Of a stretch of 64,000 nt of DNA, positions 2,410 through 59,743 are shown one piece after another. The notes below the pieces were generated by a model. It had not been told where the DNA came from. It searched no databases and worked only from the letters and a program-made list of their open reading frames with translations. The translations under genes and the position numbers were made by a program. The DNA lies in NCBI GenBank assembly GCA_964445575.1, contig CAYULB010000002.1:158-64157 (forward strand), given 5' to 3'. The DNA comes from an uncultured Eubacteriales bacterium. GTDB taxonomy: Bacteria; Acidobacteriota; Aminicenantia; Aminicenantales; Aminicenantaceae. How positions within the stretch are numbered: position 1 is the stretch's first letter; every line of letters begins with the position of its first letter.

Positions 2410-5400
2410 ATGAGAAAAGAAATTTCACTGATTATATGTTTCACACTGTTTTTTTCCTACAGCCTGGGTAGTGAGGTCAGCAGCCTTTCTGAAGTATTTG
2501 CTTTAGGAAAAGGACTGGAGGATAGAGATGGAGACAGTCTTCCGGATCATATCAGATTGTCCCTAATCATTCCTGAGAACAGCTCCTCGTATGAGGTTCT
2601 CTCCGCTTCGGATATAGCTGCCAGAGCTAACCTGGAAAGCCTGGTAGTCAATATGGACCTTCTCTCCAGAAATACCTCTCCTGTTTTTAATAACAAAGAC
2701 CGCACCTGTCCCATCATCATAAGCCACGACCTTTTATGGATTAAAAAAACATTTCCTAGCCTGGATGGAATACCAAAAGAAATCCCGTCTCATCAAGGGC
2801 TGGTCTTTATCTCTCAATCAGAAAACAAAAAAGTTGTGGTGGTGACCGCCGGCTCCCCGGAATCCCTGCTCAAAACCAGCCGGTCTTTCTTCTTGAGATG
2901 GCCTTATCTCTGGGATATTTGGGGAAGAGAACAAGGAGCGACCTATCAAAAGGTAGAAGAAGACATCCGACATTATCTAGAATCCCAACTCATAAAAACC
3001 CCCCAAATCAAGATCACCTCTGCACTTTATGAATTTCCAGATAAAGAGTCATCCTATGAAACCATTAACAGATTGGAATACAACCAAGGCCAGATAAAAA
3101 CCCTTACCGTTGACCTGGTGTTAAAGGATAGGGATGAAGCCAGAAAAACCAATGAGGTGCTAAAAAAATTGGCTGGAAACCATTTAAGAGGGCTGGAAAC
3201 AGAAATTCTTTCTTATCCAGGTTGTTCTGAAATTATCTTTAATCTCAAGTCAAAGGACGATGCTTCCAAATTAATTCTTCCGCGGGTGGGTTTTCCAAAA
3301 AGAATATTGACCCCCTTCTACAAATCACCGGTTCAGATTAAGGTGAAGGAAAATGACTTTGACCTGCTCAATATGCTTTCTCCAAACGGGCTGTACTCTG
3401 ATGAAAATCAGGATAGGATTCCTGATAACACAAATACATCCATAGTCATCCCGGAAAATTACGGCCCAAGAGAAATCGCCGCTCTCGCCTCAAGGTTGAC
3501 TCTCCATACATCTGGAGCCTCTTTTCCTCTGACTTACATGGATTCAGAAATTGAAGAACCTAAGGAACTCCCGAATCCCATTATCATAGGCAAGGAAAAC
3601 ATTCTGTACCAGGATCTGGTCAAAACAGGAAAACTGAGTGCTTCAGAGCTAAAACCGGGGACAGCTGCTGTTCACATCATTCCCCAGGCTTTTAACCAAT
3701 CGCCGGCTGTAGCTGTCTTTGGCTCAGACAAAAAAAGCCTGGCCGGGTTGTTAGAATATCTCTCTCTTACTTTTCCTTACTTTGATGAATACAAACAAGG
3801 AAATCCTGAATTCAAGGACATCTCCCTCTGCCTCGAAGATTTCTTTCACGGGAAAAAGGGCAGTGCAGAATCCTATTTTTTCAATGAATTGAAAAACACT
3901 GTCCAAAAAATCAAACATAAAAAAATAACATCATTTTCAGTTGATTTCTATCTGCCAGAAAAAAATAAGCTTTTTGAAAAATTCATTCACCGGATGTTAA
4001 AAAATGAATTAGATGCCAAAGAGGTAAACACAAAATCCTTTTCTTTTGATGACAGTAACGTCATTTTCAAGATGGAAAAAACCTTTGATTGGGAGGTGGA
4101 GGAAGTTTACAGAATCCTTGATGAAACTCTGGCCAGTGGTCAGTTAAAAGGAGGCCCTCTTCAAATAAACCTAGGAGTCAGTGAGTCCCCCAAAAGCAGG
4201 GAGAAAATAAAAACAACCATTCAGGAAATATTAAAGAAAAATAACATCAATGACTTTCATGTTGATGTTATGTCTTCTTATAAACAAGGGTTTTTCTGGT
4301 TAAAAGAGAAGGTCATTCCTTCTCTTAAATCAAAAAATCCGAACCAGATATTGATCAGATTCTCTCGAACTAACCAGGACTTTACCAACTCAAAAAGATT
4401 TTATCCTGACCCCTCCCGGTGGCTTCAAGAACTGTATCCTATAGACGAAATCATTTCTCAAGAAACAGGAATTCCCCTTGAAAAAATTATTTTTGAAATG
4501 AAAGAAGAACAAAAACCTACCTATGAAATCACAGCCTATGATGAAAATGACCTTGAGGTTTTTAAAGGCCAATTTTCTCCCCGTACTAAAGAAAGCTGCT
4601 ACTTGAAAGTCCTTCCAGAATGGGGAAATGTGATTCGAACTACCGGGTGGCTTCAGATAAAAGAAAAAGAAAAGGTCATTAAAGACGTTCCCATCGCCAG
4701 TGACCTGGAAAAATTCTGGGACTTTTATCAGGAAGAAGTGCTTCCCCCTGTCTATGAATACATTCTTAACAAAACCCATAACAAACCAACGTTCGACAAA
4801 CAGCCCTACTTCAAACAGCTGTTGATTGAGCTGTGGATGAGCGAACCTGATTTTAAACTGGACCTGGACCAAGAAATCATAAGCAGTCTGGAGGCAATTC
4901 ATGATGAAATCTATTTTGATACTCTTGATTTCCTGAGAGGGATCACAGACATTCAAACCGATGAAAAGGACCTTCCTGAAGACTCCTCACGTTATTCAGC
5001 CCCGGGAAATGTCCTCCCCATAATCCATCCTTCAGCAGAAGGAGGAAAAAACAGAGTAAACATCCTGTTTGAAGACAAACTAGCAAAATCTTCCTCTATG
5101 GCCATAAACTGGAGTGATGACTTGGGGAATGAATTCCATGAAAAATTCGAATTCAAGCCCCTTGAAGCAAAAAAAATGAAAACTTCTGTTCTTCTCTATA
5201 ACTTAGAGAAAAACAGGATTGAAAACATCTTTATTGAAACAGAGATTGAAAAAGAGGAACAATATCTAAAACTTATAGAAATCCTCCAGACTTACAGACA
5301 CCTCTGTGAACAGGGAATCATTCTTACTTCATTTAACTTTCCCAATCTCAACAGTTTGACCCTTAAAATCAAACATGGAGACATCTTTAAACAAGAAACC

Positions 5401-26713: not shown

Positions 26714-26818
26714 ATTCATTCCCTTTGAATCGATTTGCTCAATGCTTTTGGTTATTTTACTCAAACACTAAAAAAATAGCAATGGAATGCAGATAAAGGA
26801 TAAGAAAAATAACCTGAA

Positions 26819-28066
26819 CTATTCATAACGAAGGGATACCATGGGGTCCACTCTAGCTGCTTTCTGAGCTGGAAATATGCCAAAGAAGAGTCCCACTGAT
26901 ACAGACACGAAAAGCCCCAGACCTACGGACCACAGAGTGACTGTTGCCGGCAGAGGGGTGGTGACTCTTACCAGCAAAGCAACTGCAAATCCTATGAGAA
27001 GGCCGGCGGTCCCTCCGACTCCAGTTAATATTATGGATTCTATAAGAAATTGGTTCTGGATATCAGAAGAGCGCGCCCCAATGGCTTTGCGTATCCCTAT
27101 TTCTCTGGTCCTTTCTTTGACCGTTACCAGCATAATATTCATGACTCCAATTCCCCCTACCAACAAACCGATAGAGGAAATCACAATCATCACAAGATAA
27201 GCGGCGCCAGTTAACTGGTTATAAAGGTCAAGGATAGTTCCCTGCCCATAGATAGCAAAGTCATTGGGTTTGCCTACGGGAACTTTTCTTCTCTGGCGGA
27301 GGACATTGATGATCTGGTCTTTAGCTTCTTCATAAAATTCATGCTTTTGAGGAACAGCTACAATCTCAATACTGCTCAAATCATAGGGAAAGTGCTTCAT
27401 GGCCGTGGTCAAGGGAATCGCTGCAATATTATCCCTGCTCTGCCCAAACATAGCCCCCCTTTTTTCCATCTGCCCTATGACTGTGAATCTGTGTGCTCCG
27501 ATCCTGATCTCTTTTCCTATAGGATCTGTATGGGGAAACAGAGCTTCTTTAACATCAGCCCCTAGAACACACACCTTGGTGCGGTGAATCATATCAGATT
27601 CTGAAATGAAACGTCCTCTCTCAGGAAGATAAACAGAAATGACACTGGGAAAGCTTTCATTCATGCCGATAATGATGGTATCTGTGGATTCTGTCCCCCG
27701 ATATTTAATGGGAATGCTCTCGAACAAGGATACCGTGAGGTCAACACCCACTGCTTTGACCAAAGGACATTCCCTTTTTATAGCCATGGCATCCTCAAAG
27801 GTCAGGTCTTTTCTCTGCCTTCCTTCTTCGGACATATTCCCCACATTGATCCCGGGTTCATACTTGCTGATCATGATTACGTCTGGTCCTACAGATTCCA
27901 GCTCACTGAGAAAAGATTTGTTCAGCCCCTGTACCACTGAAACCATAGCTATCACAGTCATGACTCCAATCATGATTCCCAGAAGAGTAAGAAATGACCT
28001 GAGTTTATGGGAAATGATAGATTCCAGGGACATCTGAAACACGTCTTTTAGAATTCCTATTTTCAT
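26819..28066 (-). CDS. ABC transporter permease, MacB/FtsX type
   Basis: N-terminal TM helix, MacB-like periplasmic core, C-terminal FtsX four-helix module (RTREIGIRKAIGA). Confidence 0.85.
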   Translation of the reverse strand: MKIGILKDVFQMSLESIISHKLRSFLTLLGIMIGVMTVIAMVSVVQGLNKSFLSELESVGPDVIMISKYEPGINVGNMSEEGRQRKDLTFEDAMAIKRECPLVKAVGVDLTVSLFESIPIKYRGTESTDTIIIGMNESFPSVISVYLPERGRFISESDMIHRTKVCVLGADVKEALFPHTDPIGKEIRIGAHRFTVIGQMEKRGAMFGQSRDNIAAIPLTTAMKHFPYDLSSIEIVAVPQKHEFYEEAKDQIINVLRQRRKVPVGKPNDFAIYGQGTILDLYNQLTGAAYLVMIVISSIGLLVGGIGVMNIMLVTVKERTREIGIRKAIGARSSDIQNQFLIESIILTGVGGTAGLLIGFAVALLVRVTTPLPATVTLWSVGLGLFVSVSVGLFFGIFPAQKAARVDPMVSLRYE

Positions 28067-32018: not shown

Positions 32019-32272
32019 CCTGACCTATTCATAAAAAAATGGCGATATTTTCATTATCGCTCTATTTTCAGCAATGTACAAGAATTTTTCAAGAACAATG
32101 TCTTAAACATTTTTCCTGTTTGAATTTTTTATTTTAATCGCCATTTTTTTACCATTAAGGCGAGCCGATCTCACGGCATCTGCTTCGTTGCAGGGCATTC
32201 GCAGTGAAAGACCACGACTTCATGCCCTGGCGCCTCGCATCTGCCGCAATTTCGACTCGTGAATAATTCAGG
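32019..32272 (-). repeat. Full-length copy 1 of a MITE-like intergenic repeat (sense orientation on the minus strand)
   Basis: Reverse complement aligns over its whole length with 59432..59689, roughly 80-85% identity by eye. Ends CCTGACCTATTCAT / GTGAATAATTCAGG. TTAA at 32015..32018 and 32273..32276. Confidence 0.8.
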
Positions 32273-33566
32273 TTAATAAATTTCTACTTTTTGCTTCTTT
32301 AATCAAATCATCCCTGAATTTGGGATGAGCGATTTCAATCAGAGATTTAGTTCTCTCATGTAAGTTTTTTCCATGAAGGTAGGCGACTCCGTACTCAGTG
32401 ACCACATACTCCACATCAGCTCTGGTTGTCACCACCCCAGAGCCTTTTTTAAGATAAGGAACAATCCGGGAAAACTCTTCCTTTTTAGCGGTAGAAGGAA
32501 GGGCGATGATGGGTTTTCCTTTTTTAGAGTGGGCTGCTCCCCGAATAAAATCAACCTGTCCTCCAAAACCACTGTAAATGTACTTTCCGATTGAATCAGA
32601 ACACACTTGTCCTGTAATATCGACTTCAATAGCTGAATTGATGGCCACCATTTGGTCATTTCTAGATATGATAAAAGGATCATTGGTGTAATCTGTGGGA
32701 TGGGCTTCAAAAACAGGATTGTTATTGGCAAATTCATACAGTTTTTTCGATCCAAGAATAAACGTTAAAATGATCTTATTGGGATGATAGGTCTTTTTTG
32801 CCCCTGTGATGACTCCGGATTCTATGGCTTCCATGACTCCATCTGAAACCATCTCTGTATGACTTCCCAGGTCTCCCCGGTTCTTTAAAGCTGAAAGAAC
32901 CGCGTCTGGTATCCCGCCAATTCCCAACTGCAGAGTGGACCCATCCTCAATCAAATCTCCAATATACGCCCCGATCTTCCTTTCCACTTCACTAAACGGT
33001 TTTTTCTGAAGCTCTGGGAGAGGTTCGGAAACTTCCACAATCTTATCTATTTTAGACACGTGGATAAAAGAATCCCCTAGAACCCGAGGCATCTGGTCAT
33101 TTACCTGTGCTATCACCACATCTGCAGTCTCGGCTGCGGACTTGGAACAAAGGACTTCCACTCCATAACTCATAAAACCGTGTTCATCAGGGGGAGACAG
33201 ATGAAGCAGAGCCACGTCAATGGGCATCTGTCTGGAATAAAACAATTCAGGTATCTGATGAAGAAATATAGGAATATAATCCGCTCTCCCATCATTAATG
33301 GCTTTTCTGTCGGCAGGACCCACAAATAAAGAGTTGTGTCTGAAATGCCCTTCCATTTCAGGCTTAGAAAAAGGGTCATCTCCCAATAAAAGGACATGCA
33401 CCAATTCAACAGTTTTCAATTCATCCTTTCTTTCCGCCAGAGCATTCGCCAGTACATAGGGAGTGGCTGCGTTTCCACTAATATAGACTCTTTGCTTGCT
33501 CTTAATTTCTGAAACAGCTTCTTCCGCACTTACCAGCTTTTTTTTGTACTCATCAACCCAGCTCAT
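32268..33566 (-). CDS. Acetyl-CoA hydrolase/transferase family protein (4-hydroxybutyrate / short-chain acyl-CoA:acetate CoA-transferase-like)
   Basis: ~430 aa. Family-typical SGNAATP, LQLGIGGIPDAV and GFGGQVDFIRGA. Start set at ATG 33566 (GGAGG 6 nt upstream); the ORF track gives 33572. Confidence 0.85.
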   Translation of the reverse strand: MSWVDEYKKKLVSAEEAVSEIKSKQRVYISGNAATPYVLANALAERKDELKTVELVHVLLLGDDPFSKPEMEGHFRHNSLFVGPADRKAINDGRADYIPIFLHQIPELFYSRQMPIDVALLHLSPPDEHGFMSYGVEVLCSKSAAETADVVIAQVNDQMPRVLGDSFIHVSKIDKIVEVSEPLPELQKKPFSEVERKIGAYIGDLIEDGSTLQLGIGGIPDAVLSALKNRGDLGSHTEMVSDGVMEAIESGVITGAKKTYHPNKIILTFILGSKKLYEFANNNPVFEAHPTDYTNDPFIISRNDQMVAINSAIEVDITGQVCSDSIGKYIYSGFGGQVDFIRGAAHSKKGKPIIALPSTAKKEEFSRIVPYLKKGSGVVTTRADVEYVVTEYGVAYLHGKNLHERTKSLIEIAHPKFRDDLIKEAKSRNLLT

Positions 33567-33633
33567 TAACATCCTCCATGATTAACAGAATCATATATGA
33601 ACAAAATTATTTTGACAAGATAAGAAACCAAGT

Positions 33634-45663: not shown

Positions 45664-45814
45664 CCTGGCATATTCACAAGTCTAGGTGGCGAGCTTAATG
45701 AAATTCAGCCACACCTGAATTTCATCTTGGTTAGGTGCTTTTTTGGAAAAATCTTGCACATCACAGGAAAAATACCAATAATAAAAACATCTCTTTTTTT
45801 GTGAATAGGTCAGA
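45664..45814 (+). repeat. Short variant copy of the intergenic repeat family (different internal hairpin)
   Basis: Ends CCTGGCATATTCAC / GTGAATAGGTCAGA match the family TIRs. The right half is collinear with 59620..59689. The core is replaced by ATGAAATTCAG-CCACAC-CTGAATTTCAT. Confidence 0.65.
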
Positions 45815-59354: not shown

Positions 59355-59431
59355 TGATAAATGTGACAGTTAAGGTGATTGAATAACCTACCTTTATTTA
59401 GTTATGGTTTTGTGCTAGGATTGTTATTTAA

Positions 59432-59689
59432 TCTGGATTATTCACGAGTTGAGATTGGAGATTGCTGCAGATGCGAGGCACAGGGCATGAAGTCGTGGTC
59501 CTTCACTGCGAATGCCCTGTAACGAAGCAGATGCAGTGAGATCGGCTCGCCTGGAAGGTAAAAAAATGGCGATTAAGATTAAAAATATAAACAAGAAAAA
59601 TATTCAAGACATTGTTCCTGAAAGAATCTTGCATATAGCTGAAAATAAATTATTAAAAAACATCGCTATTTTTTTATGAATAGGTCAGG
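59432..59689 (+). repeat. Full-length copy 2 of the MITE-like intergenic repeat (sense on the plus strand)
   Basis: See 32019..32272. Ends TCTGGATTATTCAC / ATGAATAGGTCAGG. Flanks TTAA (59428..59431) and CTAA (59690..59693). Contains a GAGATTG tandem duplication at 59451..59464. Confidence 0.8.
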
Positions 59690-59743
59690 CTAATATTAAT
59701 CATTTAACAAAGAATATTTGTGGTTAAATACAGGAGGAACAAT

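Follow-up and report, generated by a model that had tools for sequence, protein, structure and literature searches.

A GC-rich hairpin that keeps its base pairs on one strand, carried by a probable miniature transposable element of Aminicenantes-type genomes

The stretch of DNA analysed here (the window) comprises 64,000 nucleotides of contig CAYULB010000002.1 (positions 158 to 64,157 of the forward strand) from assembly GCA_964445575.1, which is labelled as an uncultured Eubacteriales bacterium and is placed by GTDB in the Aminicenantaceae, within the Acidobacteriota. Its context is that of an ordinary chromosome, with fabH-like, DUF885, acetyl-CoA hydrolase, RNase HII, GHMP kinase and TatD genes, among which lie two copies of a non-coding repeat with a GC-rich core that folds into a long hairpin, and a shorter relative of the same repeat. 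A preliminary description of this DNA had spoken of a repeat, and the repeated structure is confirmed, but it had missed that the unit is a transposable element with terminal inverted repeats (TIRs) and a 4-bp target-site duplication, which makes the hairpin very probably a module of mobile DNA and not a stand-alone RNA locus. The features of the three copies are the following.

59432-59689, plus strand: copy 2, whole element, 258 bp (end-to-end alignment with 30 other complete elements).
59432-59445, plus strand: left TIR of copy 2, TCTGGATTATTCAC (family consensus CCTGGATTATTCAC), pairing with 59677-59689.
59445-59549, plus strand: core hairpin of copy 2, made of P1, P2 with a tandem G.A, P3, a GAA/GAA internal loop and an apical hairpin of 4-6 bp (folding and alignment).
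59445-59452, plus strand: P1 of copy 2, CGAGTTGA, pairing with TCGGCTCG at 59542-59549.
59465-59474, plus strand: P2 of copy 2, CTGCAGATGC, pairing with GCAGATGCAG at 59527-59536 as two short helices that flank the tandem G.A.
59480-59488, plus strand: P3 of copy 2, ACAGGGCAT, pairing with ATGCCCTGT at 59512-59520 and closing a 23-nt loop.
59560-59573, plus strand: 5' half of stem A of copy 2, AAAAAAATGGCGAT, pairing with 59662-59675.
59629-59657, plus strand: position of the outward sigma70-like promoter in copy 2, TTGCAT with a degraded -10 box (column counts over 27 elements).
59662-59675, plus strand: stem A' with U-run of copy 2, ATCGCTATTTTTTT, with one G.U to stem A (whole-element fold and pairing counts).
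59677-59689, plus strand: right TIR of copy 2, TGAATAGGTCAGG (comparison of flanks and TIRs).
32019-32272, minus strand: copy 1, whole element, 254 bp, with TTAA on both sides (alignment and flanks).
32161-32259, minus strand: core hairpin of copy 1 (alignment; covariance-model score 154.7 bits).
32053-32092, minus strand: two overlapping promoter-like sites of copy 1, TTGAAA-17-GAAAAT and TGTACA-16-GATAAT (promoter scan).
32033-32046, minus strand: stem A' with U-run of copy 1, ATCGCCATTTTTTT, with its partner at 32137-32150.
45664-45814, plus strand: copy 3, a relative of 151 bp that has its ends and its promoter and right-end module in common with the others, but a different short hairpin as cargo and no core.

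In the complete units, which are 250-258 bp long (about 253 bp), the start CCTGGATTATTCAC and the finish ATGAATAGGTCAGG are mutually inverted repeats of 13-14 bp; those of copy 2 (CCTGGATTATTCA and TGAATAGGTCAGG) form 13 pairs, and over 31 elements 92% of the corresponding cells hold standard pairs. The left TIR is followed by the core hairpin, stem A, about 90 AT-rich nucleotides with the sigma70-like promoter, A' with its U-run and the right TIR, and the target duplication lies outside. When a whole unit is folded as one strand it gives a three-way junction, in which the paired TIRs enclose the core rod and a second helix, A/A', that joins AAAAAAATGGCGAT to ATCGCCATTTTTTT across the AT-rich nucleotides, has 95.8% of its cells paired and ends in the U-run. 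Mean pairwise identity is highest in A' and its U-run (0.945), followed by the TIRs (0.90), the core (0.84-0.87) and the AT-rich middle (0.73). Copies 1 and 2 align over about 255 nt, and copy 3, which ends 6 nt before the ATG of a GHMP-kinase gene, shares with them only the ends and the last 70 nt. The open reading frame (ORF) of an acetyl-CoA hydrolase/transferase (32268-33572, minus strand) crosses the TTAA duplication of copy 1 and has its TGA stop inside the left TIR, so that the insertion rewrote the last codons of the gene.

The core fold of copy 2 is recovered by minimum free energy folding, and the coordinates of P1, P2 and P3 and the 23-nt loop given in the preliminary description are all exact. 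Folded as RNA, the plus strand of 59440-59555 reproduces the P1-P3 rod at -49 kcal/mol, against a mean of -35.7 for shuffled sequences (z -3.67, 0 of 200 shuffles as good), whereas the minus strand reaches -31.7 kcal/mol (z -0.92); with DNA parameters the fold is unremarkable on either strand (z -1.49 on the plus, -0.76 on the minus strand). The P3 loop itself folds into the small 4-6-bp hairpin, separated from P3 by the symmetric GAA/GAA internal loop. The core is enriched in G+C, as had been noted, although the earlier figure of about 60% is slightly high for copy 2 (56%; copy 1 59%, the rest of the repeat, or tail, 25%, the window 41%). The differences that had been listed between the two copies are all present, namely CTGCA/TGCAG against CGGCA/TGCCG in P2, an A-U against a G-C plus a bulged C at the base of P3, a U.G against a C-G in P1, a T/C change in the loop and the 7-nt GAGATTG duplication, which among 44 copies is private to copy 2. 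The earlier remark that the fold matches no Rfam family is borne out, since no family reaches its gathering score in the window and none matches the core at E up to 10, nor the copy at locus L019 at E up to 1. The core is ruled out as an intrinsic terminator, since GCCUUAAUGGUAAAAAAA comes after it without a U-run. The only ORF inside the element is an 11-codon frame (MKSWSFTANAL, window 59486-59521), which occupies one position in every copy, extending from P3 across the apical loop, and has a GAGG 8 nt upstream; it was judged spurious, its stop being lost in many copies and its changes tracking pairing and not codons.

The evidence that the hairpin is maintained comes from the comparison of its copies. 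A scan with the apical-loop sequence, made on one genome per species and on Joint Genome Institute (JGI) metagenomes, gave 46 loci; 38 distinct cores were aligned with MAFFT, and a covariance model built on that alignment found 6 more complete copies with diverged apical loops, for a total of 44, drawn from the window, five metagenome-assembled genomes (MAGs) and the JGI metagenomes. Standard pairs occupy 97.5% of the pair cells in the 38-copy alignment and 97.2% in the 44 copies, where only 29-42% are standard if the partners are slid by 1-3 columns. The preliminary description had held that the hairpin is supported by compensatory changes, and this is upheld: among the 44 copies 10 pairs carry changes on both sides (4.1 +/- 1.2 in shuffled alignments, 0 of 500 as many, and 1-5 in the slid controls) and 33 cells are changed on both sides (0 of 500 shuffles), with the limit that the shuffles ignore phylogeny and the copies are on average 85% identical. 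Examples are found in all three stems, with G-C, A-U and G-U in 29, 9 and 5 copies at one pair of P1, U-A and G-C in 34 and 4 at one pair of P2, and C-G/U-A 39/5, G-C/A-U 40/3 and A-U/G-C 42/1 at pairs of P3. An independent run of RNAalifold recovers the same structure with 11 compensatory pairs.

The wobble pairs had been said to pair on one strand only, and the larger sample agrees, since the non-Watson-Crick cells of the 38-copy set are G.U or U.G in 186 cases and A.C or C.A in 5, and the sense strand is the more stable in all 38 copies (mean -49.4 against -35.8 kcal/mol). The strand on which pairing is preserved runs in the direction of the promoter-like box. Variants of pair type found in a single copy preserve pairing in 14 cases and break it in 22, roughly as expected of unselected mutation, whereas those common to at least two copies preserve it in 21 and break it in 7; the filter on pairing thus operates over time or in the lineages that spread, and individual copies decay as well. 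One orthologous insertion is shared by two genomes with about 85% identity in the flanking genes; there the left TIR, the core and stem A are about 95% kept, but the tail cannot be aligned and has in part given way to another repeat. This argues that the core matters beyond mobility, although gene conversion between copies could also produce this pattern. The hairpin is therefore real and evolves under selection to keep its base pairs on one strand. That this selection acts at the RNA level is probable: the earlier claim of an RNA-level structure and not just a DNA palindrome finds support in the fold scores (z -3.7 as RNA, -1.5 as DNA), and the choice between RNA and single-stranded DNA is one that we infer.

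The mobile nature of the unit is apparent at its borders. Among 28 complete elements with distinct flanks, the 4-nt flanks are identical in 13 and match at three of four positions in 10 more, while shifted controls give at most one perfect match; the identical flanks are a 4-bp target-site duplication. Nine tetramers are represented, with TTAA the commonest, then CTAA, CTAT, TTGG, TTCA, TTAT, TTTA, TAAA and AAAA, and the flanks of copy 2 (TTAA at 59428-59431, CTAA at 59690-59693) belong to the class with three matches. A filled and an empty site can be compared in two contigs that are 94-98% identical, of which L022 has a 104-bp relative between two TAAG and L029 a single TAGG; such a presence/absence polymorphism is seen for this short relative only, and not for the 253-bp form that bears the core. 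Relatives with the same ends and other cargo measure 86, 104 and 151 bp, and right-end fragments also occur. Together, these observations make it very probable that the hairpin is the left-hand module of a non-autonomous miniature inverted-repeat transposable element (MITE), multi-copy in Aminicenantes-type genomes.

Several arrangements show how the parts of the element are combined. Head-to-tail neighbours 1-5 bp apart, mostly 4, are frequent (L008, L013, L016, L018, L021, L026), which is expected if TTAA is both target and duplication. In a second subfamily (L005, L007, L034) the ends, TTTAGATGATTCAC, do not start with CC, the tail is different and A/A' is swapped wholesale for AAAAyCAGCCTGCA / TGCAGGCTGATTTT, while the core has hardly changed. 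GC-rich cargo of a second, unrelated kind (…GAAATTCAGGTGTGGCTGAAGCGACATTGAAGATTTAGCC…GACCCACGGACGGGGGGAGTTGCGCAGCAGCC…) is found within the same TIR framework in L020 (1-175, minus strand) and L019 (about 3000-3180); in L020 it occupies the exact site of a standard element in L043, whose flanks are 95% identical, and in L019 it replaces the tail, so that cargo modules are shuffled between elements with common ends. A short hairpin at 45690-45735 of the window is related to this second cargo. Locus L035 (5816-5900) holds an 87-bp derivative, in which the left TIR and P1 precede the 3' half of the core in reverse complement (…CAAGCCGATCTCACTGCAT…), with the promoter module after it; this looks like the product of a hairpin-mediated deletion or of template switching. 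As for further ends in the window, apparent right ends at 969 and 47430 were rejected as chance matches inside coding sequence, and CGTTATGAATAGTTCAGGTTAT at 26805-26826 (minus strand), a 15/15 match to a right-end variant without A' and U-run that overlaps the ...LRYE stop of ORF 26819-28066, is a solo end or else a chance match favoured by the conserved C-terminus.

The 46 core-carrying loci consist of 19 in the five MAGs and of 27 JGI metagenome contigs, with many hits at contig ends. By their labels, two of the MAGs are Candidatus Aminicenantes and one is Acidobacteriota; a fourth, with 11 loci, goes under "uncultured Eubacteriales", and a fifth, with a truncated copy at the end of one 1.9-kb contig, under "Halobacteria archaeon". 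Mis-binning or poor taxonomy is the probable source of these last two labels, and such a repeat might be used to mark the lineage. The window's own FabH and TatD proteins are encoded only on contigs, from its own strain, that break off within the element, the behaviour expected of a multi-copy repeat in short-read assemblies.

The best-kept columns in the AT-rich part of 27 elements read TTGyAt-17-rATAAT, the key -10 positions being kept in 22-26 of the 27, and the promoter scan finds a site in copy 3 (TGCACA-16-AATAAT) besides the two in copy 1. In the main family 6 nt separate the end of the -10 box from A', and 8-9 nt lie between a TGnGATAAT box and the unrelated A' of the second subfamily, so that transcription is predicted, from these spacings, to start at the first bases of A' in both. 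A sigma-54 promoter, considered by eye for the TTGCA box, was rejected, since the GG-to-GC spacing is wrong and the GG is absent in two copies. In copy 1 alone, a local 6-bp hairpin (GCGATA..TATCGC, window 32042-32060, minus strand) lies directly before the U-run and overlaps the -10 box; it is the only local hairpin with a U-run that the scan calls terminator-like. With respect to the neighbouring genes, the longest ORF downstream of complete elements is co-directional in 16 cases, opposite in 8 and unclear in 5. The earlier proposal that the paired strand points toward the downstream gene thus holds for the three copies of the window, and overall is a weak tendency, a strict orientation being ruled out by these counts. 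The start codon of the 16 co-directional ORFs lies 2-73 nt past the element in 15 and overlaps its end in 1, so close that the insertion separates the gene from any native promoter.

Taken as a whole, these data are best explained, in our judgement with somewhat better than even confidence, by a MITE-borne hairpin that acts as RNA within a portable, insulated promoter cassette, both the RNA level and the function being proposed from the pattern of change and the layout. The core would act on transcripts coming in from outside, which may read through from a gene upstream or start at the promoter of a preceding tandem copy, so that in tandem arrays each core would be transcribed from its neighbour's promoter. 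Such incoming transcripts would hold both A and A', which may form a helix ending in the U-run and resembling a terminator, and hence a barrier; the element's own promoter would start at the first bases of A', and its transcripts would lack the 5' half of the A/A' helix and so would run on into the neighbouring gene. The GC-rich rod, close to the 3' end of the incoming transcript, may protect or delimit that end, as REP, ERIC and Correia hairpins do. The specific role of the element as insulator and stabiliser is put forward as a tentative possibility.

A number of observations weigh against this explanation, and should be considered together. The core is not needed for mobility, as short relatives without it also transpose, and paired and unpaired core columns are equally variable (0.079 and 0.078), which places the signal in the kind of change and not in its rate. 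The -10 box of copy 2 is degraded to ATTAAA by a 2-nt deletion and the promoter scan finds no site there; the promoter region overall is conserved no better than the AT-rich spacer (0.73 each), and AT-rich DNA gives promoter-like matches easily. A solo element has no promoter upstream of its core, and upstream genes show no orientation bias, being co-directional in 12 of the 21 scorable cases (12 against 9), so that many copies may never have their core transcribed in the sense direction. Finally, the A/A' loop of about 90 nt is far above that of the usual intrinsic terminator, a short-loop GC-rich hairpin followed by a U-run, and the terminator scan does not call A/A', which is therefore only terminator-like.

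An autonomous partner was sought through its ends and its transposase. No locus holds inward-facing TIR pairs 1-3 kb apart, no transposase gene with the same ends was found in the 314 kb of the window and the loci, and the right-end pattern is absent from viral contigs. Two candidates were discarded, an ORF adjoining a right-end fragment in L047, which encodes a histidine kinase, and locus L038, which holds only fragments of unrelated transposases (Y2_Tnp). In the latter, the junk region beside a right-end fragment (2530-3669, the same as in L014 and L039) contains 133 aa from the C-terminus of a Y2_Tnp (IS91-type) transposase, and an ORF of 180 aa resembling the N-terminus of another transposase. 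The ends were also compared with those of ISEcp1, a member of the insertion sequence family IS1380, as read from plasmid pC15-1a: its left end, CCTAGATTCTACGT, is identical to CCTGGATTATTCAC at 9 of 14 positions and both start with CC, its right end is CCTAAATTCCACGT, at a distance of about 75 nt from an outward promoter, TTGAAA-18-TACAAT. For two IS1380 members, ISEcp1 and ISPme1, such promoters at the 3' end have been documented (PMC9330008), and IS1380 has been treated as a prokaryotic outgroup or relative of the piggyBac transposons, which are specific for TTAA (PMC10813416). The present element, like piggyBac, has TTAA as its most frequent target. The target duplication of the IS1380 family is 4-5 bp, and that of this element is 4 bp; IS5-like families use YTAR-type 4-bp targets, which the target of this element also fits. 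A tblastn search of the window and loci with the ISEcp1 transposase gave nothing, and a database search with ISEcp1 returned only its close relatives, whose ends differ. The element is thus not filed as an IS1380 derivative, because no transposase gene with these ends was found, one subfamily has ends without the initial CC and other families also use 4-bp AT-rich targets; IS1380 is the closest lead to its ancestry, and not a result. ISEcp1-like transposases of 83-90% identity occur commonly in metagenomes from the environment, MAGs named Labilibaculum and ANME-2 among them, and ISEcp1 and an 84%-identical environmental relative (L049 870-895; L052-L054, about 110 nt upstream of tnpA) have a 9-bp leader hairpin, CTTTCACCCA..TGGGTGAAAG.

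Selection on one strand could also be read in terms other than a function of the transcribed core in its host. The core may work as single-stranded DNA, as a hairpin extruded during replication or transposition and bound by the transposase or by a host protein, with selection acting on the master copies that transpose. It lies inside mobile DNA and adjoins the left end, G.T is the best-tolerated mismatch in DNA too, the orientation of upstream genes is unbiased, and the preservation of pairing in shared variants but not in private ones (21:7 against 14:22) is as if selection acted on transposing lineages. We nevertheless consider this unlikely: the TIRs and the fixed 4-bp duplication point to a DDE-type, double-strand mechanism, the core-less relatives of 86-151 bp have intact ends and one of them shows the filled and empty site, the fold is unremarkable with DNA parameters, and the old orthologous copy keeps its core despite a decayed right end. 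Somewhat less likely still is that the hairpin is a remnant of a parent insertion sequence, from the 5' untranslated leader of its transposase mRNA, where it would have controlled translation or blocked activation from outside, with no role in the MITE and with a covariation inherited from parent lineages. In ISEcp1 the left end is followed by a leader, tnpA, the outward promoter and the right end; if the layout of the parent was similar, the core, directly after the left end, would stand on the transposase-coding strand, and it is in this leader region that ISEcp1 and its environmental relative keep their 9-bp hairpin. Yet neither the window and loci nor the ISEcp1 database search yielded a parent element, and all MITE copies across several MAGs have an identical deletion architecture, so that their origin lies in a MITE rather than in deletions that recurred; MITE subgroups have structure-preserving variants in common, and the core is kept at about 95% in the old orthologous copy.

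Readings in which the core is a functional RNA of another kind can be set beside these. It is improbable, though conceivable, that the core is a functional non-coding RNA for the element's own benefit, for example one that binds or regulates a transposase acting in trans or a host factor; such an RNA would be produced by transcription from the right-end promoter through a tandem or circular junction and on into the left end that follows, and it would account for the core being the cargo best preserved among subfamilies that differ in ends and tails, for the maintenance of pairing in spreading lineages and for the abundance of head-to-tail junctions. We give still less credence to an independent small-RNA gene, riboswitch or ribozyme that became multi-copy by happenstance. 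The rod with its several purine-rich internal loops (tandem G.A, GAA/GAA), the highly conserved apical hairpin and the combination of the core with different ends and tails would suit it, but the core is always within a few bases of a transposon end and without a promoter of its own, the downstream genes are unrelated (RNase HII, DUF885 and others) and Rfam has no match even at the permissive threshold used. As for a chance palindrome whose covariation merely reflects the relatedness of the copies, the high identity of the copies and the phylogeny-blind shuffles speak for it, but measures robust to relatedness are extreme as well (the double-changed pairs, more than twice the shuffle mean, and the 186:5 ratio of G.U to A.C cells), and A/A' is swapped as a whole stem in the second subfamily, which leaves this explanation highly implausible.

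The favoured reading, a hairpin acting as RNA inside a MITE with its own promoter, has close counterparts among known bacterial repeats. Correia in Neisseria, ERIC/IRU in enterobacteria, BOX/RUP in pneumococcus and bcr1 in Bacillus cereus are MITEs that fold as RNA and act on neighbouring genes; they are 100-300 bp long, non-coding, intergenic and multi-copy, have TIRs, short AT-rich target duplications and stable co-transcribed hairpins, some carry promoters or a terminator-like activity, and for bcr1 compensatory changes between copies have been reported. The present element, small, non-coding, intergenic and multi-copy, with TIRs, a short AT-rich target duplication and a stable hairpin, belongs by kind with these structured bacterial MITEs, of which promoter-bearing examples are already well known. 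It has no sequence relationship to them and is found in an uncultured phylum; it differs also in its three parts, namely the stem of the TIRs, the GC-rich rod of 100 nt and the long-range helix that surrounds a promoter, and in that its rod is far GC-richer than the host DNA and is exchanged between subfamilies with different ends. REP/BIME and REPINs are intergenic repeats as well, whose hairpins can stabilise the 3' ends of upstream mRNAs, but REPs are palindromes of 20-40 nt mobilised by RAYT tyrosine transposases and without such TIRs or target duplications, whereas this element has TIRs, a 4-bp duplication and a 253-bp unit. Structured RNAs of 100-200 nt encoded next to an element end, and specifying the target, are known in IS110/IS1111 (bridge RNA) and IS200/IS605 (omega RNA). 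As in these, the right-end promoter of the present element would, in a tandem or circular form, read across the junction into the structured core; unlike it, they lack this kind of TIR and target-site duplication, while here the targets are varied AT-rich tetramers, core-less relatives still move and no guide-like complementarity was found in the element. If the core does serve the element itself, its RNA would be a DDE-type counterpart of the RNAs encoded by IS110 and IS200/IS605.

For RNA-discovery pipelines the case is a warning, since the source of the strong covariation is here a mobile repeat rather than an RNA gene of the conventional sort. It also offers a transposon-borne structure under selection on one strand only, which is directly testable in existing metatranscriptomes. 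The Aminicenantes (candidate phylum OP8) have no cultured model, and their promoters, RNA elements and mobile DNA are almost uncharted; for this lineage the element is an abundant marker repeat, which visibly breaks the short-read assemblies of its genomes, and it yields a probable native promoter consensus of the sigma70 type.

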